Shown piece by piece: positions 7 to 20,743 of a DNA stretch of 35,017 nucleotides. The DNA lies in NCBI GenBank assembly GCA_964345915.1, contig CAYFTD010000172.1, positions 1-35,017 on the forward strand, given 5' to 3'. The number at the start of each line of letters is the position of its first letter. Positions within the stretch are counted from its first letter, which is position 1. This DNA is from an uncultured archaeon (GTDB taxonomy: Archaea; Asgardarchaeota; Thorarchaeia; Thorarchaeales; Thorarchaeaceae). The position numbers and the translations under genes are program-made. The notes under the pieces are model-generated. The model searched no databases, was not told the DNA's origin, and worked only from the letters and a program-made list of their open reading frames with translations.

Positions 7-1131
7 ATGTCCGCTGAGAATTCAAGGTTAAACTTCTGGCAGGGAAATCAGGCGTGTGCCGAGGCTGCAATTGAAGCAGGTTGTAGGTTCTTTGCAGGAT
101 ATCCAATCACTCCAGCCTCTGAGATTGCCGAGATAATGGCATTTCGACTTCCGCAGGTTGGAGGAACGTACCTGCAGATGGAGGATGAGATAGGAGCCAT
201 CTCTGCCGTGATTGGCGCGTCGTGGGGAGGGTCTCTCTCAATGACTGCGACTTCAGGACCCGGTTTTAGTCTGATGCAGGAGAACATTGGATATGCCGTA
301 ATGACTGAAACTCCCTGTGTGATTGTCAACGTACAAAGAGGTGGCCCTAGTACTGGACAGGCCACAAAAGCGGCGCAGGGTGATTTCATGCAGGCAGGTT
401 GGGGCACTCATGGAGACCATGAGAGTATAGTGATTGCACCATATTCAGCACAAGAAACTTATGAGTTAACGCTACGAGCCTTCTCTCTGTCTGAAAGACT
501 GAGGCATCCTGTCATTGTGCTTTCGGACGAGATTGTTGCTCACGCACGCGAAAGAGTCGTGATAGACACGGAAAGGAGTAATGAGGTTATTCGACGTTAT
601 GCGGGAGAAGGAGACCCGCCATATGGTGGAGTCGATGATGGATGGTCAATAATGCCCCGATTTGGTGACGGACATGACCTACTAGTAACTGGCTCTACCC
701 ATGACGAGTTGGGATTCAGAAGAACGGCCGATCCTCAAACTCACAATAGCCTGGTACGCAGAATCACAGGTAAGATTCAGGATGAACGAGAGCTTCTGAC
801 TGATGTAGTAGTGTCTGGACCACGAAGAGCTGATTGGGGCGTTATTTCGTACGGGTGTACCTCAAGATCTGTTGAAGAAGTCATGACGAACATCTCTGAT
901 TTGAGTGTCAAGTCTCTTAGACTGAGAACACTCTGGCCATTTCCAGATGGTGAAGTGGCGCAATTCGCGAAGTCCGTCGGTTCATTATTGGTTCCTGAAC
1001 TCAGCCTAGGCCAGCTATCTCGAGAAGTTTCGAGGGCGGTGGGTGATTCTGTGAGGGTTGTATCGTTGGCCAAGATAGGAGGTGGCTTAATGATAGAACC
1101 TGGTGAGATCGTTGATAGAATCACTGAATGA
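7..1131 (+). CDS. korA: 2-oxoacid:ferredoxin oxidoreductase, alpha subunit
   Basis: 374-aa ORF. The blocks AGCRFFAGYPITPASEI, MTATSGPGFSLMQE and VQRGGPSTGQATK are the hallmark alpha-subunit motifs of the 2-oxoacid:Fd oxidoreductase family. The ATG at 7 abuts an upstream stop (cTGAcgATG). Confidence 0.85.
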   Translation: MSAENSRLNFWQGNQACAEAAIEAGCRFFAGYPITPASEIAEIMAFRLPQVGGTYLQMEDEIGAISAVIGASWGGSLSMTATSGPGFSLMQENIGYAVMTETPCVIVNVQRGGPSTGQATKAAQGDFMQAGWGTHGDHESIVIAPYSAQETYELTLRAFSLSERLRHPVIVLSDEIVAHARERVVIDTERSNEVIRRYAGEGDPPYGGVDDGWSIMPRFGDGHDLLVTGSTHDELGFRRTADPQTHNSLVRRITGKIQDERELLTDVVVSGPRRADWGVISYGCTSRSVEEVMTNISDLSVKSLRLRTLWPFPDGEVAQFAKSVGSLLVPELSLGQLSREVSRAVGDSVRVVSLAKIGGGLMIEPGEIVDRITE

Positions 1132-3341: not shown

Positions 3342-4271
3342 CTAGGGTCTTTCATTGGATTGTTGTGCTGAATCGACAGAAGACAACTCTGAATCAGTTG
3401 TAAGTGAACAGGCAATCATTGGCGCTAGTGGTAAATATAGAGGCCAAAGAAACCTAGCATCGAAATAGGCAAAGAAAAGACCCAAGAAAGCCAATGGAAG
3501 AAGTGCTAGGATTCCAAGAGACGCGTCCTTACTTACTAACTTCCAACGGTGGCATTTGTCACTTGTAATCGTGATCAAGAGAATTGTCACTGGTAATACA
3601 AATGTGATTCCGATTACTCCCACGACTTCAAACGGTCTATCGAATATATTGAGATTGAATCTAAGCGTGTTCGATAACTCGCCGAATATGAGAAATCTGA
3701 GTGCAAGATGCAATATTGAGGCTGGAACAATTACCCAGAGTTTCTTCACCCCCTCTCTTAGTACGTAATACAGCCCGATGAAGAGGACTATCTCTTTCAC
3801 AATGACTCCAAAGAGAAGCATTGTCATTGCGAACCAATCACCTAGGCCCTCTATCATTCCTATGACAATGGCCACCATCACAAGTACCGCAAGTGCATCA
3901 ACGAGGGGTACTGGACCATAGAATGCTACGGGAAATGATGCCGTACAGATAGCTGCAGCATAGAAAGCGGGCCTATCATCCATGGAATAACCTCTCACAT
4001 ACCTGTGGATTCCAAGACCAATCAAACAGACAAAGAGTACGTTCAAAGCAGAGAGTATTAGGAAAGAGTCACCCAAGCCGTTTAGTATGGACACCACAAA
4101 TGGTATTGCTGGTCTCAAGGCGAAGGGTGCACGAACGTCTTCGATGCCCCCTTCTCCATCGAAGTACTCGATGTAATCAAGATACACTTGACTGTCCGGA
4201 TAGACATGACCAAATCTAACGACTGATGTTACACACGCCAAGACAATCAGTGTAATCGCGTATTTGTTCAT
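3342..4271 (-). CDS. Polytopic integral membrane protein (possibly a GT-C-like glycosyltransferase)
   Basis: 309-aa ORF with ~8-9 hydrophobic helices. The first loop carries an acidic/aromatic patch (YPDSQVYLDYIEYFDGEG) like the DxxY loops of GT-C enzymes. A TATA-like ATTTAAGG lies ~30 nt upstream of the ATG. The function is a guess. Confidence 0.65.
   Translation of the reverse strand: MNKYAITLIVLACVTSVVRFGHVYPDSQVYLDYIEYFDGEGGIEDVRAPFALRPAIPFVVSILNGLGDSFLILSALNVLFVCLIGLGIHRYVRGYSMDDRPAFYAAAICTASFPVAFYGPVPLVDALAVLVMVAIVIGMIEGLGDWFAMTMLLFGVIVKEIVLFIGLYYVLREGVKKLWVIVPASILHLALRFLIFGELSNTLRFNLNIFDRPFEVVGVIGITFVLPVTILLITITSDKCHRWKLVSKDASLGILALLPLAFLGLFFAYFDARFLWPLYLPLAPMIACSLTTDSELSSVDSAQQSNERP
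3593..3600. repeat. GTAWTAC motif copy (GTAATACA, single unit)
   Basis: Exact 8-mer inside the 3342-4271 membrane-protein gene. Confidence 0.5.
3765..3772. repeat. GTAWTAC motif copy (GTAATACA, single unit)
   Basis: Exact 8-mer inside the 3342-4271 membrane-protein gene. Confidence 0.5.
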
Positions 4272-4488: not shown

Positions 4489-5547
4489 GTGATGTCCTTT
4501 TATTGGGTGTGGTCTTTGATTGATGAAACATTCGAGGCTATTCAGAACTCGTCTTGGTCTTGTCCTGACTGTTCGGGTTTGCTAGTGGTGAACCAGGGTT
4601 ACATAGTATGTGTAAAATGTGGTCTGGTTGTTTCCAGAGAGTATGTCCTGCCCACTTACCAAATGGGTGAAGAACGGTCTACCAACAAGCCCGAAGCAAC
4701 TGTCTATGTGTCTCTAGGCAATCGCATGCATATTGTTGATGGGCTTGGAAGCTATATTGGTTTTCACAAAGAGAGGTACTTTCAGGATGCACAGGGTCAC
4801 ACTCTGTCAGCAAGATCGCAGAAGAAGTTCAAGCGTCTAAAGACAATCTATAGCACACGGATTAGGATAGGCAGGAATGAGGCAAAATACAGAGCTCTTA
4901 GGACACTCAATCACGTTTCAAAACTGCTTATGTTAAGTGAACAGGTGCGAGATCGTACTGCATACCTATACAAGAAGATAGCCACGGAGGCCTCCAGAAA
5001 AATCACTAACAATATCCTGCTCATTGCGGTATGCCTGCTTATGGCTGTTCGTGAGTTCAGAGAAGGTGCTCCAATAACCTTGGACGAAATAGCCAATACG
5101 TTTGAGAGGTGTGGCCACCGTGTAAATGTTAGGGCTATAGTAAGAGAGGCATTGAGGCTCAAATCGCTGACAGGTTTTGCTCCTGAAATTCGTCGTCCAG
5201 AGGACTATGTGCCAAGAGTTCTGTCGATGCTAATGAATAGTGAGAGAGTCGTCAGGAAGGTGAAGGCTCGCGGCTGGAACTTGAGAAGTTATGAAAATGC
5301 GCTCAGAGACAAGATGCTTGAGGTTCTCGGGATGATACCACCTTCAAGAAGAGGGGGTCGGAACCCGTTCATATTCACAGTTTCTGCGGCCTATGCCAGT
5401 GATCGATTGATTGCTGATGAGAATGGAAGACGTTCTGTGCTCACTCAGAAGCTTACATCCAGAGCAACAGAAGTGGCTGAGTATAGTATACGTGATCACT
5501 TCGGAATGATGAAGAAAGAAATCGTGGTGCTAAGTGGGCCTGGTTAG
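4489..5547 (+). CDS. tfb: Transcription initiation factor B (TFIIB-like), divergent paralog
   Basis: It has a Zn-ribbon (CPDCSGLLVVNQGYIVCVKCGLV) followed by two cyclin-like repeats (RDRTAYLYKKIA..., NPFIFTVSAAYASDRL). The usual B-reader block (GPEWR) is not recognisable. GTG/ATG/TTG start choices exist within the first 10 codons. Confidence 0.8.
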   Translation: MMSFYWVWSLIDETFEAIQNSSWSCPDCSGLLVVNQGYIVCVKCGLVVSREYVLPTYQMGEERSTNKPEATVYVSLGNRMHIVDGLGSYIGFHKERYFQDAQGHTLSARSQKKFKRLKTIYSTRIRIGRNEAKYRALRTLNHVSKLLMLSEQVRDRTAYLYKKIATEASRKITNNILLIAVCLLMAVREFREGAPITLDEIANTFERCGHRVNVRAIVREALRLKSLTGFAPEIRRPEDYVPRVLSMLMNSERVVRKVKARGWNLRSYENALRDKMLEVLGMIPPSRRGGRNPFIFTVSAAYASDRLIADENGRRSVLTQKLTSRATEVAEYSIRDHFGMMKKEIVVLSGPG

Positions 5548-5596: not shown

Positions 5597-7294
5597 ATGT
5601 CGAAGCGTGATGTATCTGTCTTCAGCTGTCCAGGAGATAGATGTCAAGAGTGTCCAGACTTCACATTGTCCAGGTGTTCGAAGCTCGTTCTCCTCAGAGA
5701 TGATGGTTCTTCTAGAGTCGTTATACTTGAACCGGATAGGAATCTCATTCATATTGGTGGTCTAGCAGAATCGTTTCCAGTCGAACCGCCGTGGTATTCT
5801 GACTCTTGGGAGTCGGTCTATGTCCATGACTATAGCAAGGTTCTTGATTCAGAGAGAAGTCTGGTTGATGTCTATGTTGTTGATCCCTATCTCACTCTCT
5901 TCCATAATAGCTCGAATGAGAATGGTTTCCTGCACCGAACATACCCTCTAGTCAAGAGTCCTTTAGAATATGGGCTTCTGAATGAGCTTAGCGACAACAT
6001 ACATAGACAGACACAAGGTCTGTCTGGTGACAGAGTAGAGCTTTCAGATAGGCTTCGACGCCTGTCTCAATGTGTTTCTGACAACATCATGGAAACGTTA
6101 CCAGAGATCAGCGATATGACAAGAAGGAGAATATCTGATGCTGTGGCTGGACGAACTTCCGTATTGGGACCACTTCTTCCACTCTTGCTGGACGACGAGG
6201 TTGAGGAGGTTTACGTGGACAGACCTGGAACCTATGCTTATTTTGACCATCGCCGCTTTGGTCGTTGTCGATCAGGCTTTAAACTACCGCACGGCGACGT
6301 AGAACGACTTGTGACCCTGATAAGGGCAGAGAGCAACCTCAGTCTGGACAGAAGAAACCCTTCGCTCAAGACTGAGCTCAGGCTCTTTGATGTTGTACTG
6401 CGCTTGGCCATAAGCATACCACCACTTAGTCACGATGGAATGCATCTTGAGATTCGTCGGGCGAAGAAGTCCCCATTCTCCATCTTGGACCTGATACGAA
6501 ACGAAACTCTTGTTTCAGAGGCGGCGGCGATTCTCCTATTGGCGGTTGGTTCCAGATTTAACGTAACGATAACTGGTGGTCCAGGGACAGGGAAGACAAC
6601 TCTGTTGAATGCTCTCGATATGAGCACACCTTCAATGTGGAGAAAGGTCTACATCGAAGATGCTGTTGAGAGTAGAGTTGTACCTGACCACCACCAAGTG
6701 CGTATCAGTGTAGATCCGGTTGATGAAACAAGTAGGAGATTCGATAAGACGGCAGAGATAGTGAAAAGCCTCCATCGCTCGCCAGACTATCTCATCCTCG
6801 GTGAGATACAGACCAAGGAACACAGTGAGGCTCTCTTCCAAGCCATCGCAGCTGGGCTCAGGACTATGCAGACATGCCATAGCTACTCAGCAGAAAGTCT
6901 TGTTTCTCGCTGGACTGCAGGACATAAGATAGAAACAACGAGCATGGCACTTATGGATCTGATTGTCACGATGGAGAGACCGATACCTGGTAGATCGTAT
7001 CGCAGAGTGAGTAGCATCGTTGAAGTCCGAAAGGCGATCATTGATGGGTTTCTTAGGTTCTTAGGGTTACATACGGTGTACAATTGTCGTAGTTCAAATG
7101 AAGTGAAATGGGCAGAGGATGGTGCCTTCTTGTTCCATTCGCGCGAGTTAGGACTTGATAGTCATGTTCCCGCGTTCGAGGCTATTGTTGGGTGCATAAG
7201 AGAAGAAATCGATTCATCTCTTGGAAACGTAAGACCTACATTAGGTGATCGACTATGGAAACGAGGGCATCCGATGCAATTCTTGGGAGTCTAG
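5597..7294 (+). CDS. Type IV filament / secretion NTPase (PilB/FlaI/TadA superfamily)
   Basis: Walker A ITGGPGTGKTTLLNAL (~6574-6600), Asp box YIEDAVE, Walker B PDYLILGEIQTKE and His box MQTCHS. The archaeal-style N-domain has a VYV..DPYL pattern. There is an extra N-terminal Cys cluster, CPGDRCQECPDFTLSRC. Confidence 0.8.
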   Translation: MSKRDVSVFSCPGDRCQECPDFTLSRCSKLVLLRDDGSSRVVILEPDRNLIHIGGLAESFPVEPPWYSDSWESVYVHDYSKVLDSERSLVDVYVVDPYLTLFHNSSNENGFLHRTYPLVKSPLEYGLLNELSDNIHRQTQGLSGDRVELSDRLRRLSQCVSDNIMETLPEISDMTRRRISDAVAGRTSVLGPLLPLLLDDEVEEVYVDRPGTYAYFDHRRFGRCRSGFKLPHGDVERLVTLIRAESNLSLDRRNPSLKTELRLFDVVLRLAISIPPLSHDGMHLEIRRAKKSPFSILDLIRNETLVSEAAAILLLAVGSRFNVTITGGPGTGKTTLLNALDMSTPSMWRKVYIEDAVESRVVPDHHQVRISVDPVDETSRRFDKTAEIVKSLHRSPDYLILGEIQTKEHSEALFQAIAAGLRTMQTCHSYSAESLVSRWTAGHKIETTSMALMDLIVTMERPIPGRSYRRVSSIVEVRKAIIDGFLRFLGLHTVYNCRSSNEVKWAEDGAFLFHSRELGLDSHVPAFEAIVGCIREEIDSSLGNVRPTLGDRLWKRGHPMQFLGV

Positions 7295-7367
7295 GAACTC
7301 GCCGGCTGTGATGTTTTGGGGCACTTAAAATACCGTTACCTAGACATCAGTTCAGGTGGACCTATTA

Positions 7368-7568
7368 ATGGTGAAAAAAGACCTCATCGTGGATGAATCT
7401 GGTGGCCCCCTGGTAGAGGAGAGTCTTCTCTTGGGTCTTGCAGTGGTCACTGTTTCGATAGTGATAGCCGTTATCCTACAGGCGACGGGGTGGGCACAAG
7501 ACATTGTCGGAAGTCTTCTGAAACTCTTGGAGGATAGCTGGAGCAGTTTCACAAGTCTCTTTCCCTAG
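7368..7568 (+). CDS. Flp/Epd-type prepilin-like small protein (class III signal peptide)
   Basis: MVKKDLIVDESGG|PLVEESLLLGLAVVTVSIVIAVIL closely mimics the Flp leader and cleavage region (..DESGATAIEYGLI..): short basic leader, Gly, Glu at +5, then a hydrophobic helix. It lies 61-73 nt downstream of the ATPase gene. An alternative GTG start is at 7356. Confidence 0.5.
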   Translation: MVKKDLIVDESGGPLVEESLLLGLAVVTVSIVIAVILQATGWAQDIVGSLLKLLEDSWSSFTSLFP

Positions 7569-7673: not shown

Positions 7674-7784
7674 GCTCCGGTAGATGTGCTATGAGAATCA
7701 TCATGGTATTGCCGTGTGTAGTCCGGCCCAGCATGGGGGACTCTCGATCCCCCGACCCGGGTTCAAATCCCGGCCGGAGCACCA
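7674..7784 (+). tRNA. tRNA-Glu: tRNA-Glu (anticodon CUC) with a ~33-nt intron in the D-arm region and genomically encoded CCA
   Basis: The 5' acceptor GCTCCGG (7674-7680) pairs with CCGGAGC (7774-7780). T-arm is CCGGG-TTCAAAT-CCCGG. Anticodon stem GGGGA/TCCCC has loop CTCTCGA (CTC at 7743-7745). The D-arm GTGTAGTCCGGCCCAGCAT resumes at ~7716, leaving 7683-7715 as extra sequence. A73 plus CCA occupy 7781-7784. Confidence 0.75.
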
Positions 7785-7794
7785 TTCGATTCTT

Positions 7795-9759
7795 CTAGCC
7801 AATCAGGTGTCTTCGATACAATATTGGTATCCCGAGAAGGCCAATTGAAACACACAGACTCAATACTAGTCCTGGAATCCCCACTCCTTGCGATGCTAGT
7901 ACATCTGTTTCGGATACAGTGATAGAGATGTGTCCCCTAGACGGTTGTAGGGAAGAAGTGCCTTTGATTTCGTAGTGCAGATTGAAGATGCCTGCGTTGG
8001 CGGGTAGAGGAAGAACAAGCTCGATGTGACCAGAATGGGTGCTTGTAGCAGACCCACGGTGAGTCAGCCATTCATAGAGCAGTGTTGTGTCGCCGACTGT
8101 TGTGCCATTGAGACATTGCAGATTTAGATGAATCCAAAGTTCCCTTAGTGTCGGATTGGTGTGGTAGTGGCTCAAAATGACGTCTACGGGCATCAAGGTG
8201 GTCACCACAAGCACGTCCTCGAAACTCACGGGCAGTTCGTAAGAAGATAGGCTACCATTGGTCTTGAGAAACAGAGTATAGTTCCCGATGTCTTCGGGCG
8301 CGTACAATGTCATGTTTGTAAGCCCTTCCGAGTTTGTAACGGATGATGCTAGAACTGTTTCGTCAAGGCCACATTCAATCGACCGAAATGGAAGACTGCC
8401 TTCCGTTGAATTCAGTTGAATGTGAAAGGAGAGTCGTTGTGTTGGAGAAGCATAGCCTCGGGTATTGCTCTGGATAATCGAGATAGCTGGCACTAGCCAG
8501 ACAGTCGCCCAGTGTGTCGAGCTTGTGTTTGTTAGGTAGGGGTTTCCTGAGATTGTGAGTAATAGGCTCCTGGTACCCACAGAGCCAGTGAAGAGGAACT
8601 GGAAATGGACTATGGTCTGGTCGGTTGGTACTGGCAGACTTATGGTTCGGTCTGTTGTTTGGTCTCTGAGCGTGATAGAAACATCTGGGATTGGCCTTCC
8701 AAGCAAATCATGGATTTCAATCTGGATTTCGGTCTTGGATCCAGTTGCTATGTGCTCCGGAAACACGATGTGTGGTAGTACAGGACTATACACAATTATG
8801 TCGATTTCAAGGAAGGAGAAGGAATAGCGGTCTGTCCCATTGAACTCTACTCTAACCTTGTGTGGTCCCAAGTCTAGCTGATGATCAATGGGGATGCAAA
8901 GCTCAGAAACTCCCTGTGTGTCAGCTGTGATGGCGCAAACGAATTCTCCATCAATGAGGGTTTCTAATGTGGCATTGGGAAAGTTCTCACCTGCGGCATC
9001 TACACTCAGCTTCAACCAGAAGAGCTCATTCAGCACGAACTGGGTCCCGTTGGAGTCTTCCAGAACGATATCTGTTAGGATTTGTTCTATGGTAATCTCG
9101 AAGAGATATTCGGACCCATTGTGATAGCTTGTCATGTCAGGTTCATAGACGACTCTGAGTCTGTTCTTGCCAAATGACCCCCAAGACATGTTGCACTCAA
9201 TGTTGAAAGTCGCATAGCCGCTATCATTGGTAATACCAACTGCAAGTTGGAACTGGCCATGATAGACAGCTATCACTGCATCGGTGATGGCCTTGTTGTG
9301 GTCGTCAATTATGCCGATTGTAAAGAGAATATGATCTTCGGGATGAAAGGTTGATTGATTGTAGAACATGCTAATCTGAGTATTGGAAGCAACTATGACG
9401 GTAATCCATTGACATGACGGAGCAAGAGAGAGCGTATCGTTGCCATCGAAAGTCACATTCAGTAGTGTAGGACCTAGAGGATGATTTGATGTGAGGTTCC
9501 AGTATACTGTCGCCCATCCATTGATGTCAGTGGTTGCAGATTCTATGAATGAGTTCTGTGATTGATCATAGAAATCTAGCTGTTGTTCAGGTACGAAATC
9601 ACCATAGGATCCGTTCTGGAGTAGTCTTGCGTTGATTGGTACTATTTCTCCTCTGATAACAACGGGTTGCTCCTCTGCACCAACATTCGTTGTACTTGTG
9701 AGTGACAGTAGAATTGACAATGCGATTGCCAAGATTCCTGCTAGGTAGAGCTTTCTCAA
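7795..9759 (-). CDS. Secreted, C-terminally anchored surface protein with Ig-like repeats, rich in N-glycosylation sequons
   Basis: 654-aa ORF with signal peptide MRKLYLAGILAIALSILLSLTSTTNVGA. Repeats have T[DN]xxGxA and G-x-H/Y-x-V-x-V-x-[FY]-x-G (LGPHKVRVEFNGTDRYSFS). A C-terminal TM helix is followed by a basic tail (GIPGLVLSLCVSIGLLGIPILYRRHLIG). About 17 NxS/T sequons. It is a paralog-like relative of the 777-2876 ORF. Confidence 0.7.
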   Translation of the reverse strand: MRKLYLAGILAIALSILLSLTSTTNVGAEEQPVVIRGEIVPINARLLQNGSYGDFVPEQQLDFYDQSQNSFIESATTDINGWATVYWNLTSNHPLGPTLLNVTFDGNDTLSLAPSCQWITVIVASNTQISMFYNQSTFHPEDHILFTIGIIDDHNKAITDAVIAVYHGQFQLAVGITNDSGYATFNIECNMSWGSFGKNRLRVVYEPDMTSYHNGSEYLFEITIEQILTDIVLEDSNGTQFVLNELFWLKLSVDAAGENFPNATLETLIDGEFVCAITADTQGVSELCIPIDHQLDLGPHKVRVEFNGTDRYSFSFLEIDIIVYSPVLPHIVFPEHIATGSKTEIQIEIHDLLGRPIPDVSITLRDQTTDRTISLPVPTDQTIVHFQFLFTGSVGTRSLLLTISGNPYLTNTSSTHWATVWLVPAISIIQSNTRGYASPTQRLSFHIQLNSTEGSLPFRSIECGLDETVLASSVTNSEGLTNMTLYAPEDIGNYTLFLKTNGSLSSYELPVSFEDVLVVTTLMPVDVILSHYHTNPTLRELWIHLNLQCLNGTTVGDTTLLYEWLTHRGSATSTHSGHIELVLPLPANAGIFNLHYEIKGTSSLQPSRGHISITVSETDVLASQGVGIPGLVLSLCVSIGLLGIPILYRRHLIG

Positions 9760-10023: not shown

Positions 10024-13000
10024 ATGTCCACTGAAAGACTGCGCAGAGAAGATAGTGAAGAACTGATGCAAATGAAAGGGTACCCTATACTGTGGCGTGG
10101 AATTGAGCTTGTTTGGAAGCTAGGAATTGTCACTTGTGCACTCTACCTTCTGACTGTATATCTACTTCCTTCATTAGGTCTGTTGGGTGCGCTATCAATC
10201 CCATCCAAACTCATGGTAGAGCTTCTCATCTGTGGTGTGCCCTTGTGTATGGGCGGCCTAGTCGTCGTTGAAAGACTGATTTCTGAGCGGGCTTCGGTCA
10301 CGATAGATGATGAACTGCTCGTACTTCGTTTGAAAGACCAGATGGTTGCAACATGCTGTCTTGACATCGCTTCGGTTTCAGGTTCTGTTCGTGCTGGAGA
10401 GAATGAACGGCCTGAATATGACACAACCTACCTGTTGGCATTGCGTGCCGGAATGGATGAACGTGTCAGCATGACCTACGAAGCCGGTGTTTTAGGCGGT
10501 GCACCTTATCTGCGCCTCTTCATAACTGGATCAGGTAGCGATTCAGATGAAACTGCGGACTTGTTGAAACGAGAAGCTACTAGAGCAGAAGCAATTCTCC
10601 TTGCTTCTTTGAGTAATATTGAACTCCGTCAATTGAAAGGCGATGATCTGAAGAACGCGACCTTGGGACTAATCAACGCAGACCTTGATGCACGTCAGGG
10701 TCTATCGTTCACAAAGAGGTCAGTCTGCCTATTGCTGCTTGCTGGAGAACCTCGTGTCGAACCCTCAACAGAGAGGTCTCAGGTAGGCGTGTTTATTTCT
10801 ACTGCGTTGAAACAACAATACGACGTCGTATTCTCATGTGTCTTCTCTAGGTCGAAATCTCGTCGAGAACAAAGGAAGCTAGAGAAACAGTGGAAGACAA
10901 TCCGTGAGAAGGAGATGCGAAATGAAGATTCTTTGGCTGACCAATCTGAGAAGAGGAAGCTTGTACGGCGCTACGAGAAGATTCAAGGGAGTACGGGCTG
11001 GTTTGATACGACGGCCCATTTAGTCATAAAAGCAGATGAACCTCAAAAGCTGCAGGAATCTCGAGAAGGGACCATTGGACTCGTGCATTCAATATGGGGA
11101 GATGATGACAAGGTTCTGTTGAAGCATAAGACAATTGATAGAAGGACCGCCTTCCGATTGCTCCTACGACGTCATATGAAAAGAGAGAAGACGCATGTTA
11201 GTAGATTAGCGGCCTTTGTCAACACGCCCGTTCAACAACTGCCAGTCATTGCAGCCTCCCAAGTACCCGACTTTTCTATACCTGCTAGAGAGCTTGTTGA
11301 GAACGAGTTAGTGGTAGGCCAGGCAGTCTTTGGGGGTCGGCTTCTAAACAATATTGGACTCAAGACAGAATGGTTGCGAGAACATGTGGCTATCCTTGGA
11401 GCGACTGGAACTGGAAAGACCACTCTTGTGAAGCATCTTGTTGCAGAGCTGAGTAAGAAATCGCAGGTGCCCTGGTGGGTGTTTGATATCAAGGGATCAG
11501 AGTACATTGAGCTGTTGGACGTATGTGACAGCGATGTTCTTGTGCTTCGACCTGGTGCTGATCCTTCATTCTTCATTGACTTCATGGATTCTGAAACTGA
11601 TTCTAAGGAGAAACATGCACATACTACATTTGCGATATTGAGAGAGTTGCTGAATGAGAGAGGTGTGGCATCTGAGCTTTCCCCGGCAATGGAGAAGCTT
11701 CTGAGAGAGGCAGTTCTCCTTGTTGCCAAGAAGAAAGAACGAGGGAACTCAATTCAGACATTAATCGAAACAATCTCTCAACTCGCTGGAAAAGATCGAA
11801 CCGGACGGATGACACGAGACGCATTGATGAATCGTCTAGAGGTGCTTTCCCGGGAACCACTTGGATCAATATTGGGTGGTGGACCCAGAGCAATGCGAAT
11901 CTCTGAGCTGATGGGCACGCGTGTGATTCTTGATCTACATTATGTTGCACGAGTCGGCGGGATGGATGCCGCCAGATTGCTGTATAATCTGATTGCAAAG
12001 CGGATATTCGATTTCGCTATGCAAAGAGGAGTAAGACCTGGTCTCCATCATGTCGTGGTTCTCGAAGAGGCCAGCAATCTGGTTCCTGAGAGTTACATTA
12101 GGCACTCGGCAGCAGACATCACAACAGGTGAATCCATGGTAATGCTGCAAAGAGCAACAGGACAAGGAGTTGTCATCGTTTCTACGAGACCCAACGTGTC
12201 CTCCAACATACTCGCGAACACGGCCACTAAGATCACATTTCGTCTGCCATATGATAGTCACGTTGGTGCAAGATTCATGTCTCTCGATAAGAATCAGGAG
12301 AGGTATCTGAGATCCTTGAAACGTGGTAGAGCCTTGATTGTAATGCCTGGCATCGAGGCGTTCGAGTTAGCTACCCGTCCTTTCGACGTTTCCACGACTT
12401 CTCACCGAATGCACAAGAGAGATGACCTAATTGGTGAAGAGCTAGAAGAGTCGTCTGATGGAACCCACAACAAAGATACTATAGCTGTTTCATCCAGAGA
12501 ATTGGAATCAGAACGGCCTGCAGGCGCAGTGTTTGATAGGCTCGGAGAGCTTGGATCACACGTTGTTGCCTTTCTTGCATCAAGGAACATGGCTACTCAA
12601 ATAGAAATACAGGGACTTCTCAGGTCGATTGACCCTAGAATAGAAGATGAGGACATAGATGAAGTCATACGAGACCTTGTTTCTTTGGGAACAGTTGATA
12701 GAGAGGCCCTTTCTCTAGTCCCCGGGGGGTTTTTGTTCACTCTGCCAGGCCGTTGTCTTGATGCGGTGAGAACGGCAATTGCTGACTATATAGTCTACCG
12801 ACTAGGATCAATTGAAACAACACCCGAACGAAGTAAGACTGATCGCCCGGATATTGTGGTTGACGATAAGGCGATTCTGATACTTCCAGAACATCTGAAA
12901 GCGTCTTCGATGGAATCAACCCTTGACAAGATTCGTAAATGCATGGCAAATCTAGGTAACAATGTGACCGAGCTGACCGTGATTGTTAGGGGTAGTGTTG

Positions 13001-13818
13001 CAGCTGCCAAGCTCAGAGAGATCATGGATAGCACAGATGCCTTTGATGCGGTAACAACCATATCTGCCTTTCCGACTTCTCTTGATGCAATGATTGAGAG
13101 TTTGCATCCTCAGACATTGTCGAACACGAATGTGAAATCATTCAACACGCAAAGAAACCCAGAAGGTGCTTCGCATGAAACTGGACAGGTGGACTTGATT
13201 GGTGCAATGCATGACGTTGGAACCGCCACTAACCGGGCGATTCAGATGCGTCTGTGGTTTCAATTGATCCAGGATTTCGTCGGACTGTCAGAAGGGCATG
13301 TACAGTGGGATGTTCTGTTGGACTTCATCGAAACGACCGCGTTGCAGTCCGTCAAGAGTCACACAGCTCCATTGAGCGTTGAAGAAGGTAAGAGAGCTTT
13401 GACTGAGTTGTTAGCTGATGAGGTCCTCATTGCTCTACGTGTGGGGGAGAAATTGGAGTTTGTAAATCTTCACAAGGGTCTCTGGATTGTCAACTCGGCC
13501 ATGCTTGAGGATTTCAAGAAATCTGTTATAGATGCCTTGGGAAAGGATCTTCGCAGTCAGAACGGTAGGGTTAAGCGAAACCACAGTTACTATGATCTGT
13601 GTTGTAATGGCGTTTCTTACGTGGTGTTTCCAAACCAGCAACAACTCAATACTCTACTTCACCTTCACAACAACATCGCGTGTAGAACATGTGGATCAAC
13701 TCGGATAGTCTGTGTGTTGACTGCTGCCGAGTATCTCGATGAGAGTATAGCAATGCCAGGAAACGTCCAGCTTTATGACTTCTCGGAGTATCTCTCAGTT
13801 ACCACTGCAACAGGATAG
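10024..13818 (+). CDS. Membrane-anchored P-loop ATPase of the HerA/FtsK/VirB4 (DUF87-like) class with a long C-terminal extension
   Basis: 1264 aa with 2-3 N-terminal TM helices (aa ~30-85). Walker A VAILGATGTGKTTLVKHL then WWVFDIKGSEY (~11398-11470), Walker B HHVVVLEEASNLVPE (~12046-12090), and VIVSTRPNVSSNILANTATKITFRLP. A ~450-aa C-terminal region has a winged-helix-like stretch (VVAFLASRNMATQIEIQGLLRS...VIRDLVSLGTVD) and terminal Cys pairs. Confidence 0.8.
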   Translation: MSTERLRREDSEELMQMKGYPILWRGIELVWKLGIVTCALYLLTVYLLPSLGLLGALSIPSKLMVELLICGVPLCMGGLVVVERLISERASVTIDDELLVLRLKDQMVATCCLDIASVSGSVRAGENERPEYDTTYLLALRAGMDERVSMTYEAGVLGGAPYLRLFITGSGSDSDETADLLKREATRAEAILLASLSNIELRQLKGDDLKNATLGLINADLDARQGLSFTKRSVCLLLLAGEPRVEPSTERSQVGVFISTALKQQYDVVFSCVFSRSKSRREQRKLEKQWKTIREKEMRNEDSLADQSEKRKLVRRYEKIQGSTGWFDTTAHLVIKADEPQKLQESREGTIGLVHSIWGDDDKVLLKHKTIDRRTAFRLLLRRHMKREKTHVSRLAAFVNTPVQQLPVIAASQVPDFSIPARELVENELVVGQAVFGGRLLNNIGLKTEWLREHVAILGATGTGKTTLVKHLVAELSKKSQVPWWVFDIKGSEYIELLDVCDSDVLVLRPGADPSFFIDFMDSETDSKEKHAHTTFAILRELLNERGVASELSPAMEKLLREAVLLVAKKKERGNSIQTLIETISQLAGKDRTGRMTRDALMNRLEVLSREPLGSILGGGPRAMRISELMGTRVILDLHYVARVGGMDAARLLYNLIAKRIFDFAMQRGVRPGLHHVVVLEEASNLVPESYIRHSAADITTGESMVMLQRATGQGVVIVSTRPNVSSNILANTATKITFRLPYDSHVGARFMSLDKNQERYLRSLKRGRALIVMPGIEAFELATRPFDVSTTSHRMHKRDDLIGEELEESSDGTHNKDTIAVSSRELESERPAGAVFDRLGELGSHVVAFLASRNMATQIEIQGLLRSIDPRIEDEDIDEVIRDLVSLGTVDREALSLVPGGFLFTLPGRCLDAVRTAIADYIVYRLGSIETTPERSKTDRPDIVVDDKAILILPEHLKASSMESTLDKIRKCMANLGNNVTELTVIVRGSVAAAKLREIMDSTDAFDAVTTISAFPTSLDAMIESLHPQTLSNTNVKSFNTQRNPEGASHETGQVDLIGAMHDVGTATNRAIQMRLWFQLIQDFVGLSEGHVQWDVLLDFIETTALQSVKSHTAPLSVEEGKRALTELLADEVLIALRVGEKLEFVNLHKGLWIVNSAMLEDFKKSVIDALGKDLRSQNGRVKRNHSYYDLCCNGVSYVVFPNQQQLNTLLHLHNNIACRTCGSTRIVCVLTAAEYLDESIAMPGNVQLYDFSEYLSVTTATG

Positions 13819-15189: not shown

Positions 15190-17013
15190 ATGTGTGGAAT
15201 CATCGGCGTTGTTCAGAAACGTGGTCAAGTTGCCCCATTCTTGCACCAAGCATTGAAACGTTTGGAGTATAGGGGGTACGACTCAGTCGGTATGACAACC
15301 ATATCCAGTGGGCAGCTTCACATGAAGAAGGACAAGGGCAAGATCGAAGAGGTTCACAAGAAGCTCAATCTTGATGAGATGCCAGGAAGTATAGGGATTG
15401 GGCATACTAGGTGGGCCACTCACGGAGCTCCGTCCCAGTACAATGCACATCCACACTTTGATTGCAGTAATGAGATTGCAGTTGTTCATAATGGGGTTAT
15501 TGATAACTTCCTAGAGCTCAGAGAGAAGCTTGGTTTGAAAGGGCATAAGTTCAGCTCTGAAACGGATACTGAAGTGATTCCTCACATGCTTGAGGACTAT
15601 ATTTCAGACGGATTGAGCCTAACTGAAGCTCTCACCGAAGTCACACATCGAATTGAGGGTACATATGCAATAGTCGCAATGACAACAAAACAAGATGGTA
15701 GGATAGTATGTACTCGTGATGGTAACCCTCTTGTAATCGGAAAACGGGAAGGGGCCACGTACGTTTCCTCAGATATACCAGCATTCCTGCCCATGACTAA
15801 GGATATGATTTTGCTCCTCGATGGCGAAGTGGCGACTCTGACAACAGATGGAGTTGAGATTCGAAAACTCTCCAATGGGGCCGAGGTGGAGAGAGAAACG
15901 ATAGAGATCAGCTGGACTGCAGATCAAGCTCAGAAAGGTGGATTTCCTCATTTCATGCTGAAGGAGATACATGAGCAACCGGATGCGATAAGGAATACTC
16001 TTAGACTTCGGCCGGAAGTCCTTCAAGAAGCAGCCAAGATAATTCATGGAGCAAGGAATGTCTATTTCCTCGCTATGGGTACTTCTGGATACGCTGGCAT
16101 TGCAGGAAGACACATGTTTGCCTCGCTTGCAGGCGTCCTGCCAAACTTCGAACTTGCTAGTGACTTCCCCGACACAGTGTACAATGCGTTGTCTGGAGAG
16201 GACTGTGTAGTTGCAATCACGCAATCCGGGGAAACAACAGATACGATGATGGCTGTGAAGTATGCTAAGACCTTCGGCGCAAAAGTAATCGCTCTTACCA
16301 ATGTGGTTGGTAGTTCCATAACACGCATTGCAGACCATACGGTGATCACTCAGGCTGGACCAGAGATTGGAGTAGCTGCCACAAAGACCTTCATGGTGCA
16401 GCTGACTGCACTTGCTCAAATGGCATTGGCACTTAGTGAGCTTACAGGTTTTCTTGAGAGTAAAGTGATTGAAACGAAACGCAGATTCTTGGAGGAAATG
16501 CCAGACATAGTGTCTGAAGTCATATCGAGAAATGAAGAACGAGCTCGACGCTTAGCTGGACTTCTCTATGACCAACCTAGCTTGTTATTCTTGGGTAGAG
16601 GGATCTCCCAAGCCACTGCTGAAGAGGGTGCTCTAAAGCTCAAGGAGATATCGTACAATCACGCAGAAGCATATTCGGCAGGTCAATCGAAGCATGGACC
16701 CATAGCACTTGTTCAAGACAACTACCCTGTCATCTTCATAGCACCCAAGGATGAAACCAGAAACAGGATAATCGGCAATGTTATGGAGATGAAAGCTCGT
16801 GGAGCATCGATCATCTCTGTGATTGAGAGAAGTGATGAGGAACTCAGGGGTCTATCCGATCACTGGTTTGCGATTCCTGATGGAATTGAACCGGAATTCT
16901 CTACGATGCCCTATGTGGTACCTCTTCAGCTCTTCAGCTACTATATGGCACGAAGGAAAGGATTTGACCCTGACAAGCCGCGCAATCTGGCAAAGTCAGT
17001 CACTGTTCTTTAG
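15190..17013 (+). CDS. glmS: Glutamine--fructose-6-phosphate aminotransferase (isomerising)
   Basis: N-terminal catalytic MCGIIGV, GHTRWATHG, two SIS domains (FLAMGTSGYAG, GRGISQATAEEGALKLKEISY) and the C-terminal KPRNLAKSVTV motif. Confidence 0.95.
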   Translation: MCGIIGVVQKRGQVAPFLHQALKRLEYRGYDSVGMTTISSGQLHMKKDKGKIEEVHKKLNLDEMPGSIGIGHTRWATHGAPSQYNAHPHFDCSNEIAVVHNGVIDNFLELREKLGLKGHKFSSETDTEVIPHMLEDYISDGLSLTEALTEVTHRIEGTYAIVAMTTKQDGRIVCTRDGNPLVIGKREGATYVSSDIPAFLPMTKDMILLLDGEVATLTTDGVEIRKLSNGAEVERETIEISWTADQAQKGGFPHFMLKEIHEQPDAIRNTLRLRPEVLQEAAKIIHGARNVYFLAMGTSGYAGIAGRHMFASLAGVLPNFELASDFPDTVYNALSGEDCVVAITQSGETTDTMMAVKYAKTFGAKVIALTNVVGSSITRIADHTVITQAGPEIGVAATKTFMVQLTALAQMALALSELTGFLESKVIETKRRFLEEMPDIVSEVISRNEERARRLAGLLYDQPSLLFLGRGISQATAEEGALKLKEISYNHAEAYSAGQSKHGPIALVQDNYPVIFIAPKDETRNRIIGNVMEMKARGASIISVIERSDEELRGLSDHWFAIPDGIEPEFSTMPYVVPLQLFSYYMARRKGFDPDKPRNLAKSVTVL

Positions 17014-18540: not shown

Positions 18541-19608
18541 TTGTTACCTGAGGAGAGGGGTCTCTTTAATTGTTGGCCTCGTATCTACATTCTTGTGAAG
18601 TCCTTAAGCTCTCAGCCTATTGAGGGTTACTTCGTTGTGACTGATGAGGCTCTTGTATTTGAAGTCAAGGGAGTTGTGCATCCTCGCGATCGATTGATTG
18701 CATATCTGAGGTATGTTCCTGATGACAAAGGAAATCGCCAGTCAAGAAATGGCAGAAGATTCAACAAGATATACAGGCTGAAGGATCGCGAACAGTACCT
18801 TCGTGACAGATACCCTGAGTTTCTGTGGTCAGATAGGAAACGTGGACGAGTGTTCCAGACTGTTCCAGTTGATTGTGTCGATTATGTCCTGAGTCCCATT
18901 GATGGACTGCGCCAACTTAGGGACCTTGGAGCACATCTGACTCATCTCGAAGAAGCGTCCTGTGTGCTTGCTCAGGCGTTTGTTGAACAGGCTTGCATCG
19001 ACTGGTCTGACCTTGGTCTCACTGGTTCTCAGCTCGCCGGTCTTAGTACCGCTGAATCTGATATCGACCTTGTTGTATATGGTTCAGACCCAGCCAGAAG
19101 ACTTCACTCTGTCTTGAAACACCACCTTGATCAATTCCCGGATGTCAGCCGATACAGAGATGAACGGCTTGAGAAACATGTGAAGTTTAGGTGGAAAGCC
19201 CTTGGAAGATGGAAGTCTGTATTACAAGTAATAGAATCTCAGAAGGCTTTCCAAGGCGTGTTTAGCTCCATTGATTTCTTTGTTAGAGCTGTGAAACTGC
19301 CAAGAGAGATTGGCCATCGCTATGAGGACCTCAGTATCAAAAGCGAGGGTATTCGAGAAACGAGGTGTTCGGTGATAGATGATTCTGACTCGATTTTCAC
19401 TCCGTGTATCTATCTTGTGCAATGTGATGAGTTGCCAGACATCAAAAGACTGGTCAGCTATCGTGGTCGTTTTGCAGAACATACCTCCAGAGGTTCTTTC
19501 GTCAGAGCAAGAGGTCGACTCGAAGTAGTTGACAACGATAGAAGTGGTGAAAGCTATCAACAGCTTGTTCTTGGAGAGAGTCCGGAAGATTATCTTCTAC
19601 CAATCTGA
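18541..19608 (+). CDS. Nucleotidyltransferase-domain protein (Pol-beta superfamily)
   Basis: GLTGSQLAGLSTAESDIDLVVYGSD is the G[SG]...DxD minimal NTase signature. The rest is unassigned. The start is uncertain (TTG 18541; a GTG ~18595 is possible). Confidence 0.6.
   Translation: MLPEERGLFNCWPRIYILVKSLSSQPIEGYFVVTDEALVFEVKGVVHPRDRLIAYLRYVPDDKGNRQSRNGRRFNKIYRLKDREQYLRDRYPEFLWSDRKRGRVFQTVPVDCVDYVLSPIDGLRQLRDLGAHLTHLEEASCVLAQAFVEQACIDWSDLGLTGSQLAGLSTAESDIDLVVYGSDPARRLHSVLKHHLDQFPDVSRYRDERLEKHVKFRWKALGRWKSVLQVIESQKAFQGVFSSIDFFVRAVKLPREIGHRYEDLSIKSEGIRETRCSVIDDSDSIFTPCIYLVQCDELPDIKRLVSYRGRFAEHTSRGSFVRARGRLEVVDNDRSGESYQQLVLGESPEDYLLPI
19218..19234. repeat. Bipartite GTAWTAC motif (TGTATTACAAGTAATAG)
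   Basis: Two inverted heptamers in 9-bp register, inside the NTase gene. Confidence 0.6.
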
Positions 19609-20104: not shown

Positions 20105-20743
20105 GTGAATGATTTGAAGACTGAAGAGAGAACGGGGTATTTGTACGAGTTCACATACAACTCCGGCCCGGGCCTACGAGAAATCTTTCAGTGCAAATAC
20201 GTCAAGCCTGATGAGGCATTGACAAGATTCCGAAGAATTCTTTCTCTCACAGAGGAGCCATTTGATTTCAGAATCGTAGTACGAGATGAGTCCAAGAGAG
20301 AAGAGTCTAGCTTCCAAGTCGAAGGTGGCAGCATAAAGGAGATGTTCGAGAAATTCAAGGTCTTCTTGGAAGCGAGTACCGGTCATTCCTTTGCCCCGGA
20401 GAAAGAAGAGGCAGTTGATGCTGGGATTGAAGAAATCAGCTATGAGTCAATGAGTAGTTATGAGAAGATGCACATTGTAATATATGCATCCTTCAAGCAC
20501 GGCAAGTTCTCTTCCTTGGATGTTGCCGAGATCTATCAAGCAACATTTAATGAAGACCTACCAAAGAGTACTGCTTCTACGTATCTTGCCCGAATGTGGA
20601 ATGATGGAAAGGGCCATCTTGAAAGACATGGGAATCGTTCGGGCTATACGTATCGACTCAAGACTGAGATCTCGGAAGTCCAGAAAGAAGCTGAGAGAGC
20701 CGAGGGAATTCTTGCTTCTATCCAGCTTCACGTAGGCAAGTAG
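20105..20743 (+). CDS. Hypothetical protein with a C-terminal winged-helix DNA-binding domain
   Basis: 212-aa ORF (GTG 20105; an in-frame TTG at 20114 follows an SD-like GGGTGA). The C-terminal LDVAEIYQATFNEDLPKSTASTYLARMWNDGKGHLERHGNRSGYTYRLK has an HTH-plus-wing pattern. The N-terminal half is unassigned. Confidence 0.6.
   Translation: MNDLKTEERTGYLYEFTYNSGPGLREIFQCKYVKPDEALTRFRRILSLTEEPFDFRIVVRDESKREESSFQVEGGSIKEMFEKFKVFLEASTGHSFAPEKEEAVDAGIEEISYESMSSYEKMHIVIYASFKHGKFSSLDVAEIYQATFNEDLPKSTASTYLARMWNDGKGHLERHGNRSGYTYRLKTEISEVQKEAERAEGILASIQLHVGK

Follow-up and report, generated by a model that had tools for sequence, protein, structure and literature searches.

The window analysed here, a 35,017 bp stretch of DNA (positions 1 to 35,017 of contig CAYFTD010000172.1, assembly GCA_964345915.1) from an uncultured archaeon of the Thorarchaeaceae within the Asgardarchaeota, contains, at positions 10024-13818 on the forward strand, a gene that encodes a membrane-anchored ATPase of the VirB4/HerA class with a long C-terminal tail. 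An earlier note, made from the sequence alone, had recognised a 1264-amino-acid (aa) open reading frame (ORF) at this position, and the region is a single frame of 1264 codons with no interruption. Within the FtsK-HerA superfamily, the product belongs to the HerA/VirB4 branch of ATPases; over its first ~790 residues it looks like VirB4 or a CedD-type protein and not like FtsK, and we regard it, with about as much confidence as doubt, as a VirB4/CedD-like membrane translocation ATPase that acts with a pilus module and has DNA as its most likely cargo.

A homolog search returned 210 proteins, of which the best 120 are 51-86% identical to the window protein, nearly all with 91-100% query coverage and lengths of ~1150-1290 aa. 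Where source labels are given, they read Thorarchaeota, Promethearchaeota or Sifarchaeia. A pattern scan of GTDB genomes, sampled as one genome per GTDB species, located the gene in 69 Thorarchaeia loci, and a full-length, syntenic ortholog is present in ~70 Thorarchaeia species. With full-length orthologs this widespread in the Thorarchaeia, a frameshift, a fusion or a chance ORF is excluded, which disposes of the artefact that the earlier note had itself considered; the 1264-aa ORF is real, intact and under strong constraint. A mobile-element or viral origin was also ruled out, as the GC content is flat, there are no tRNAs and a search of a viral collection gave only P-loop-level matches to the ATPase. 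Five Thorarchaeia metagenome-assembled genomes (MAGs) have two copies of the gene on separate contigs (L038/L069, L048/L077, L018/L063, L022/L089 and L039/L088); these copies are 53-68% identical to the window protein and are either true paralogs or the result of mixed-strain bins.

The catalytic core is a RecA-like motor with an inserted helical bundle (aa 426-790; 11299-12393), identified by the Pfam DUF87 and CedD profiles and by a fold match to 4ag5. Residue conservation was scored in an alignment of 61 ortholog sequences and, for the tail, also in 12 tails. In the Walker A motif, GATGTGKTT (aa 459-467; 11398-11424), G459, T461, G462, G464, K465 and T466 are invariant, and the G..G.GK pattern remains so in an Asgard-wide alignment. 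The Walker B motif, VVVLEEASNL (aa 677-686; 12052-12081), aligns with LVVLEEAH of the HerA structure 8wiv and has invariant L680, E681 and E682. All five residues of STRPN (S720, T721, R722, P723 and N724; 12181-12195), the counterpart of the HerA SQRP arginine-finger motif that aligns with SQRPS of 8wiv, are invariant, the R and P also across the Asgard archaea. FDIKGSEY (aa 487-494) and ATKITFRL (aa 734-741) are further motifs within the ORF, so that all of the motifs quoted in the earlier note are present at the aa positions checked. The residues expected of an active P-loop ATPase, K465, T466, E681, E682 and R722, are conserved without exception in the 61 orthologs and, judged from them, the catalytic site is intact. 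The HerA/FtsK-type P-loop motor proposed from the sequence is therefore accepted here, as an FtsK-HerA-superfamily ATPase with invariant motifs.

The predicted N-terminal transmembrane (TM) helices are also present. Hydropathy analysis reveals exactly two strongly hydrophobic segments, with Kyte-Doolittle peaks of 1.95 at aa 33-51 and 2.27 at aa 64-82, which form a hairpin (aa ~27-83; 10102-10272) of two helices, at ~aa 27-48 and 62-83, joined by a short loop. A two-helix hairpin places the N-terminus and all residues after aa ~84 on the same side of the membrane; an ATPase depends on ATP, so that this side, with the N-domain, the motor and the tail, must be the cytoplasmic one, which settles in favour of the cytoplasm a choice of side that the earlier note had left to topology prediction. 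The segment that precedes the helices is basic (family median isoelectric point (pI) 9.5), in agreement with this orientation. Within the hairpin, E66 is invariant, and K62, P49, P60, P73 and G77 are at least 90% conserved. The invariant E66 and conserved K62 (10207-10221, aa 62-66) are located at or inside the second TM helix, and conserved charges embedded in this way suggest that the helix touches another membrane protein, or a pilin. The hairpin is followed by the N-domain (aa 85-425; 10276-11298), a basic alpha/beta region delimited by the predicted model and by alignments with distant homologs, which is common to the pan-Asgard family described below. It is modelled mostly at a predicted local distance difference test (pLDDT) score of 76-93 in the model of aa 85-1264, and distant Asgard homologs can be aligned from aa ~103-135 onward. 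No match to it was found in Pfam, NCBIfam or PHROGs, and so the region that had been reported as unassigned retains that status.

In Pfam, the DUF87/HerA central domain is the sole match above threshold (E = 1.3e-14, 55.3 bits against a cutoff of 23.2, aa 446-606). TrwB_AAD_bind is matched weakly (20.1 bits against a cutoff of 20.5, aa 445-492 only), and Pfam gave no match to CagE_TrbE_VirB (PF03135) or to the HAS-barrel on the protein. The top NCBIfam match is CedD (E = 1.8e-13, with aa 440-778 aligned to model positions 209-518 of 527), followed by VirB4_CagE (TIGR00929; E = 2.6e-8, aa 453-587 only and, at 32.6 bits against 643, short of a VirB4 assignment by profile), anti-phage HerA (E = 1.6e-7), Thermoprotei HerA (E = 7e-4; HerA_Thermprot 18 bits against 800) and CedB (E = 2e-3; 16.9 bits against a cutoff of 700). 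The earlier note had pointed to archaeal DNA import, powered by membrane-bound VirB4/HerA relatives such as CedB, and with CedD as the top NCBIfam match this has become the best sequence lead. As curated families, VirB4, CedD, HerA and FtsK all exclude the protein.

AlphaFold models were obtained for aa 85-1264 (pLDDT 76) and aa 835-1264 (pLDDT 80). The top 13 PDB matches returned by Foldseek are all chains of TrwK/VirB4 of R388, aligned over ~800-840 columns with E values of 5e-20 to 7e-14. The isolated VirB4 C-terminal domain, 4ag5, is matched with a TM-score of 0.71 and a root-mean-square deviation (rmsd) of 4.7, TrwB with a TM-score of ~0.6 and HerA with ~0.5 (HerA 4d2i, Foldseek E = 1e-13). 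The match to full-length TrwK/VirB4 over ~820 columns has an E value of 5e-20 versus 1e-9 for the C-terminal domain alone and, because the E value gains ten orders of magnitude when the VirB4 N-domain is included, the N-domain at aa 85-425 is suggested to be like the VirB4 N-terminal domain, by fold only. Both domains of the VirB4 fold are thus present in the model, the N-domain part as a local 3Di alignment with a high global rmsd.

Some of the profile matches could instead point to a HerA-type component of anti-phage defence (Sir2-HerA, DUF4297-HerA or MADS-like), with the tail as its effector. The PADLOC mad8 model matches with an E value of 8.7e-14, several defence HerA models match with values down to 5e-12, and the PDB sequence matches are to the defence HerAs 8yho, 8wiv, 8ziq and 9c1m. 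These matches span the generic motor only, there is no adjacent Sir2, DUF4297 or nuclease partner, no effector family is recognisable in the tail, and in all 69 of the Thorarchaeia loci found the gene occupies a fixed syntenic site among housekeeping genes, unlike patchy defence islands. We consider a role in defence highly improbable, and a translocation ATPase of the VirB4/CedD kind remains our preferred reading.

The motor is joined to the tail by an acidic, disordered linker (aa 791-838; 12394-12537; pLDDT 27-32, family median pI 4.3), and the tail consists of two modules. Module 1 (aa 839-1030; 12538-13113) has a winged helix and a small alpha/beta domain in the tail model (pLDDT 80), with N979, R989-G990-S991 and S1014-A1015-F1016 invariant. 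A second disordered linker (aa 1031-1066; 13114-13221; pLDDT <50) leads to module 2 (aa 1067-1264; 13222-13815), with a second winged helix and alpha/beta domain. The tail of ~450 aa with a winged-helix-like segment that had been described is thus more precisely an acidic tail of ~430 aa with two such modules. Mean identity to the window protein is 69% for the motor, 66% and 69% for the first and second winged helix, and 16% and 33% for the first and second linker, and the tail is considered functional because its winged helices are as conserved as the motor whereas the linkers are not. In the tail model, the winged-helix fold is apparent from the order helix-strand-helix-helix-strand-strand. 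Local fold matches are to the cullin WHB domain 3tdz_D (TM-score 0.72, rmsd 2.8) and HxlR 7bzd (rmsd 3.0), and MarR, the MukE/Nse 'kite' proteins and viral winged helix-turn-helix proteins also recur; none has E < 1e-3, and Foldseek searches of the PDB and BFVD with the tail gave no match below that value. No usable family for the tail emerged from Pfam searches with 12 tails (up to E = 10), from a profile search of the PDB or from PHROGs. Weak sequence matches to Rpb4 and RTEL1-HHD (aa ~787-913, E 0.009-0.6) are too marginal and were not used.

The terminal Cys pairs noted previously are present in part as a conserved set. There are Cys residues at positions 1193, 1194, 1220, 1223 and 1230 near the C-terminus; C1194 is variable, as is C1230 (a Gly in L001 and L005), and the invariant set in both the 61 sequences and the 12 tails is H1187, C1193 and C1220-x2-C1223 (13582-13692, in module 2). 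With the pattern H-x5-C...C-x2-C, these four residues form a probable zinc site. Two short stretches within module 1, RPDIVVDD (aa 941-948) and LPEHLK (aa 954-959), had been likened to the core of a PD-(D/E)xK nuclease. This was rejected: the candidate residues vary among the orthologs (D943 is D, E, Q or G; E956 is E, Q or N; K959 is K or R), there is no nuclease profile match, and the restriction-endonuclease-like fold matches of the tail, to YaeQ, XPF and EcoO109I, are insignificant (E 0.07-0.17). Module 1 is also present in a distant homolog of 937 aa (P0140), where a single BLAST segment covers aa 103-1023, and by this alignment module 1 is older than the Thorarchaeia; the search of representative proteins detected no match to module 2 outside the Thorarchaeia orthologs. 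An internal duplication of the tail was considered and rejected, as modules 1 and 2 align in hhalign with E = 0.14 and only the order of secondary structure repeats, and homology between the Helarchaeota and Thorarchaeia tails is not demonstrable (hhalign E = 0.12). A stand-alone tail-like protein (P0268) is encoded on a 1.3-kb contig that provides no usable context.

Recognition of DNA by the winged helices, as suggested in the earlier note, fits poorly with their composition: both are acidic across the family, with median pI values of 4.4 and 4.6, which makes them unlikely readers of DNA in the manner of FtsK-gamma and favours protein docking. Docking of partner or regulatory proteins is a more probable function for the tail than the reading or cleavage of DNA. 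This bears directly on the possibility that the protein is an FtsK-like chromosome translocase, acting in the clearance or segregation of DNA at division, with winged helices that read DNA polarity as FtsK-gamma does. The order TM helices, motor, winged helix is the same in both, the gene is chromosomal in all of the Asgard lineages sampled and usually lies among housekeeping genes, Cdc6 is encoded ~9.4 kb upstream in Thorarchaeia, and in one Heimdallarchaeal locus (L105) FtsZ is encoded ~5 kb from the homolog. Yet the match to FtsK_SpoIIIE (PF01580) is limited to 24 residues of the P-loop (aa 453-476; E = 0.011, 15.7 bits against a cutoff of 24), Pfam detected no FtsK alpha or gamma domain at E <= 0.1 on the whole protein or at E <= 10 on the 12 tails, and no FtsK is present among the 50 best PDB structural matches, which are led by VirB4. 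FtsK typically has four or five TM helices, not two; most members of the family lack the tail; and, where present, the winged helices have a pI of ~4.5. We judge this reading decidedly unlikely, and the FtsK-like overall architecture proposed in the earlier note is not retained.

In the Thorarchaeia, the gene is part of a conserved block in the order PFOR, a 699-aa surface protein (-), a 121-aa protein, a TFB-like protein, a T2SSE ATPase, a 66-70-aa ORF, a 654-aa Ig-like protein (-), the VirB4-like ATPase, an amino-acid kinase (-), rpS10 and GlmS. The T2SSE-family secretion/pilus ATPase (565 aa; 5597-7294, +) matches Pfam T2SSE with an E value of 1e-20 and, in NCBIfam, the TadA family (1.2e-26), FlaI (4.2e-25) and VirB11 (5.9e-17); it is linked to the VirB4-like gene in 56 Thorarchaeia loci and, at 39% identity, in the Hel-type locus L030. 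Directly downstream of it in this order is a small Flp/type-IV-prepilin-like ORF (7356-7568, +), which would encode ~66 aa if translation starts at the ATG at 7368. Pfam and NCBIfam gave no match to it, and its identification is based on conservation of its core: in 57 Thorarchaeia loci a variable leader precedes the near-invariant (G/A)G-PLVEESLLLG[LI]AV..SI.IAVILQATGWAQ, which ends in ...ILQATGWAQ, and the Glu at +4/+5 is the signature of Flp/type IV prepilins. The T2SSE gene and this ORF lie ~2.4 kb upstream of the ATPase gene, as the earlier note had said of its filament module. A divergent paralog of TFB (TFIIB) of 352 aa (4489-5547, +) is recognised by TFIIB with E = 4.1e-5 and by PRK00423 at 56 bits against a cutoff of 384. 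It is 62-97% identical across the Thorarchaeia, where it is more conserved than the ATPase, and it may be a dedicated regulator analogous to TFB3. By tblastn, the genes for the TFB-like protein, the T2SSE ATPase and the small ORF were each located in 55-57 of the 64 Thorarchaeia loci, and those loci that have none of the three are on contigs too short to contain them. The block from the TFB-like gene to the ATPase gene, with T2SSE, prepilin and Ig-like genes between, thus occurs in essentially all Thorarchaeia loci that extend far enough upstream.

The gene transcribed divergently from that of the ATPase, also as previously reported, encodes a 654-aa surface protein (7795-9759, -) with a signal sequence, Ig-like repeats, many N-x-S/T sequons, a C-terminal membrane anchor and weak matches to Big_1, Invasin_D3 and bMG3. 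It adjoins the ATPase gene in 61 loci, and this adjacency survives inversions. Both of the large surface proteins in the window, encoded at 777-2876 (-) and 7795-9759 (-), have weak Ig-like/MG2 matches and many N-x-S/T sequons. Outside the two closest relatives they are only 27-55% identical and so evolve much faster than the products of the neighbouring genes.

As housekeeping genes in the block are equally syntenic, the rearranged loci are the informative ones. In L085, the ATPase gene is immediately followed by the relocated TFB-like and T2SSE genes; in L082, one strand carries the genes for T2SSE, the Ig-like protein and the ATPase in tandem; and in L056 and L076, an inversion has separated the small ORF from the Ig-like gene, with all still within 10 kb. 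In Helarchaeota, where the ATPases are 26-27% identical to the window protein, a similar association is found. Upstream of the 27%-identical ATPase in L030 are genes for a T2SSE ATPase, a 503-aa polytopic membrane protein, a GTPase and a TFB-like protein, and in the Hel_GB_B locus L098 a TFB-like gene is again directly upstream of the VirB4-like gene; these TFB-like copies (L030 7258-8280; L098 874-1908) are 39% identical to that in the window. The earlier statement that no partner genes are adjacent stands in so far as the ORFs scanned have no profile match to NurA, Mre11/Rad50, VirD4 or CedA, and fails in that T2SSE, prepilin, Ig-like and TFB genes are linked. Such a context, with secretion/pilus-type neighbours that are kept through rearrangements and into the Helarchaeota, is of the kind that the earlier note had itself named as counting against the segregation role it put forward.

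Several other features of the window were recorded. A 309-aa polytopic membrane ORF at 3342-4271 (-), with no family match, is present in the closest relative (L032, 91% identity) and in none of the other Thorarchaeia loci, at least 60 in number, and because it is confined in this way it must have been inserted recently or else be no gene at all. A 355-aa protein encoded at 18541-19608 (+) has a weak nucleotidyltransferase match and is conserved in the syntenic block, and a 212-aa protein encoded at 20105-20743 (+) has no match and is 65-98% identical across the Thorarchaeia. The PFOR gene opens the window, and in syntenic loci an Orc1/Cdc6 gene is located directly upstream of PFOR (L024 1-602, -; L025 1-400, -), just to the left of where the window starts and ~9.4 kb from the start of the ATPase gene. 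The putative origin that had been placed 10 kb from the ATPase gene was not confirmed: at 23.3-24.3 kb, the part of the window with the lowest GC content (0.43), there are no origin-type repeats.

The N-domain plus motor defines a wider family. Searched with phmmer, 1.84 billion representative proteins yielded 1801 matches with E <= 1e-3, 371 with E <= 1e-10 and 69 with E <= 1e-30. Beyond ~9 full-length representatives, these are proteins of 700-1440 aa that match the N-domain and motor only, at 22-35% identity, and most carry 1-7 N-terminal TM helices; the presence of 4-7 in some relatives fits a role in a membrane channel. A profile search with 31 distant homologs recovered only a Baldrarchaeota subgroup. 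Every cluster with an organism name is from Asgard archaea, of ten or more lineages: Thor-, Hel-, Loki-, Baldr-, Njord-, Odin- and Freyarchaeota, Ranarchaeia, Jordarchaeales, Heimdallarchaeaceae and 'Asgardarchaeia'. The family therefore appears to be confined to the Asgard archaea. Existing annotations of its members go no further than 'ATP-binding protein' or 'DUF87', and the searchable literature holds no description of the family or of the full architecture, which is consistent with the novelty claimed for the latter in the earlier note.

In the Baldrarchaeota loci (L026, L027 and L028; coordinates in L026, 9733-9948 and 13263-14261), the homolog is shorter (~1080 aa). Encoded ~50 bp upstream of it is a 71-83-aa protein with two hydrophobic helices, in shape like VirB2, VirB3 or CedA1. 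The homolog is followed by a convergent gene for a 330-aa MarR/HTH-like protein, which may correspond to the winged-helix tail as a separate protein. In Loki- and Helarchaeota, the VirB4-like gene has, at a distance of one to three genes, a gene for a GTPase with a longin-like N-domain and an Arf/Roc-like GTPase domain; these GTPases are orthologous and 64-71% identical. A different Arf/Rag-like GTPase is encoded directly downstream of the homolog in a Heimdallarchaeaceae locus. GTPase genes near VirB4-like genes are located in L102 at 15697-16590 (-), in L030 at 5787-6665 (-), in L031 at 7717-8712 (+) and in L105 at 12912-13586 (+). The Thorarchaeia window contains no longin/Arf-type GTPase, and the association may be lineage synteny or a real link.

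The Thorarchaeia cluster gains meaning from the DNA-exchange set of the Sulfolobales, in which Ups pili, with the T2SSE ATPase UpsE, gather cells and the Ced system, with CedB and CedD, then imports DNA; TFB3 activates both and binds the promoters of upsE, cedB and SiRe_1715, which is CedD (PMC6101594, PMC9905601, PMC11868833). CedD has TM helices, an N-domain of unknown family that is like the VirB4 N-terminal domain, and a HerA/VirB4-like ATPase, and is essential for DNA import (PMC11868833). A cluster of ATPase, pilus and TFB genes parallels this set, which by analogy hints at a related role, and because the Thorarchaeia cluster holds one gene of each of the Ups, Ced and TFB3 kinds, the ATPase is most readily placed as the cytoplasmic-face motor of a pilus-associated apparatus. 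From these parts we infer its partners, the direction of transport, the substrate and a hexameric state. Such ATPases are normally hexamers, and the protein would presumably work as one, at the cytoplasmic face of an envelope-spanning apparatus, with ATP use driving a macromolecule across the membrane as in VirB4, CedB and CedD. The cargo would most likely be DNA, as in Ced import in the Sulfolobales, with a pilin or other protein as the alternative. Its partners in Thorarchaeia would be the type-IV-pilus module of T2SSE ATPase and Flp-like prepilin, together with the Ig-like surface proteins and a dedicated TFB paralog, and the acidic tail would serve as an adaptor for partner or regulatory proteins.

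A number of observations weigh against this interpretation. The family-specific models score far below their cutoffs, CedD with 50 versus 600 bits and VirB4 with 33 versus 643. The likeness of the N-domain to that of VirB4 comes from one Foldseek alignment with a high rmsd (14 A), and hhalign of the family profile with TrwK or TrwB aligns the Walker A region only. The acidic tail lends no support to DNA handling. Profiles for a VirB6/CedA-like channel, a VirB2/CedA1-type pilin, VirD4, a relaxase and NurA/Mre11/Rad50 detected none of these within ~10 kb, Pfam and NCBIfam revealed no VirB2, VirB3, VirB6 or VirD4 partners among the window ORFs scanned, and there is no type-IV-pilus platform protein beside the Thorarchaeia T2SSE gene. 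Part of the synteny in Thorarchaeia may be inertia, rpS10, GlmS and PFOR being equally syntenic. In Baldr-, Jord-, Loki-, Frey-, Odin- and Heimdallarchaeal loci, the homolog stands alone among housekeeping genes, and so the link with pilus and TFB genes is not family-wide.

The same neighbours could also serve an ATPase for the biogenesis of a pilus or other surface structure, or for protein secretion, with a protein (the Flp-like pilin, the Ig-like surface proteins or another one) as its cargo and never DNA, like bacterial VirB4 as a pilin dislocase. In favour of this, a pilus ATPase, a prepilin and two large surface proteins are encoded in the conserved neighbourhood, the Ig-like gene and the ATPase gene remain a divergent pair through inversions, the acidic tail resembles a protein-protein adaptor, and E66 and K62 of the TM hairpin could touch the TM segment of a pilin. 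Assembly of type IV pilins is, however, already provided with its usual motor by the T2SSE ATPase, ordinary signal sequences are present on the surface proteins, the profile nearest in sequence is that of a DNA-import ATPase, CedD, and most Asgard lineages have no adjacent pilus genes. A protein-only cargo is, on this evidence, possible but somewhat unlikely, and a translocation ATPase with DNA as its most likely cargo is preferred. A bolder extension of the preferred reading, which we find quite unlikely, would make the N-domain plus motor family the membrane motor of an unrecognised envelope machine that is pan-Asgard and restricted to Asgard archaea, serving Ups/Ced-like DNA exchange between cells or DNA uptake with its own TFB paralog in the Thorarchaeia and Helarchaeota and coupled to longin/Arf-type small GTPases in the Loki-, Hel- and Heimdallarchaeia.

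Among known prokaryotes, the Asgard archaea are the closest relatives that eukaryotes have, and DNA exchange and cell-cell contacts in them are barely known. The gene marks a conserved, apparently Asgard-restricted family of membrane-anchored VirB4/CedD-like motors, and the stable Thorarchaeia cluster, with its pilus ATPase, prepilin, adhesin-like surface proteins and TFB paralog, contains the same kinds of parts as the system for DNA-damage-induced DNA exchange in the Sulfolobales. If the analogy is true, the gene is a concrete, testable candidate for gene flow and cell-cell interaction in a lineage relevant to eukaryogenesis; if it is false, the family nevertheless represents a core membrane ATPase of the Asgard archaea that had not been characterised and has a tail of new architecture. 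Were the pan-Asgard envelope machine to be real, it would provide dedicated, regulated intercellular transfer of DNA or other macromolecules in the closest relatives of eukaryotes. A VirB4/HerA-class ATPase is a known kind of protein; the tail architecture and the apparently Asgard-restricted family are new. Of the earlier interpretation as a whole, the membrane-anchored pump, its superfamily, the novelty of the tail and, as a possibility, the link to DNA exchange are kept, and the FtsK framing, the nuclease and the claim of no partners have been abandoned.

Compared with the known systems, the Thorarchaeia ATPase shares with CedD (SiRe_1715) and CedB the order of TM anchor, N-domain and C-terminal HerA/VirB4-like ATPase. 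CedD is its best-scoring NCBIfam model, but at 50 versus 600 bits and with only the ATPase part aligned. Both genes are chromosomal and domesticated, not plasmid-borne, and in the Sulfolobales a TFB paralog controls Ced together with the Ups pili with which it functions; in Thorarchaeia, homologs of each of these three kinds of gene are neighbours. CedD is, however, a crenarchaeal protein of ~530 aa with no tail, versus 1264 aa with a tail in this Asgard protein; Ced has CedA and CedA1, no homologs of which are encoded near the Thorarchaeia gene; and TFB3 is truncated whereas the Thorarchaeia TFB paralog is full-length (352 aa). VirB4 (TrwK of R388) is the best structural match over the N- and C-terminal domains, and the N-terminal TM hairpin fused to an ATPase recalls VirB3-VirB4 fusions. 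Against this, TIGR00929 scores 33 versus 643 bits, there is no CagE_TrbE_VirB match, hhalign to TrwK covers Walker A only, and the Thorarchaeia gene is present without other type IV secretion system genes and has an additional 430-aa tail. The VirD4/TrwB coupling proteins also have two N-terminal TM helices and a hexameric motor with a helical insertion (TrwB TM-score ~0.6), but the Pfam match is limited to aa 445-492, VirB4 is the better fold fit and TrwB has no counterpart of the 340-aa N-domain.

HerA has in common with the Thorarchaeia ATPase the motifs DxKGEY, hhhhEE and S(Q/T)RP and the DUF87 domain, but the Thorarchaeia protein has no HAS-barrel match, no equivalog-level score and no NurA, Mre11 or Rad50 partner among the window ORFs scanned, and is instead membrane-anchored with a large, different N-domain. 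FtsK and SpoIIIE belong to the same superfamily, and in them too a membrane anchor is followed by a motor and a winged helix, but there is no homology to their alpha, beta or gamma domains beyond the P-loop, the Thorarchaeia winged helices are acidic, and the place of the FtsK linker is taken in the Thorarchaeia ATPase by a structured, VirB4-like N-domain.

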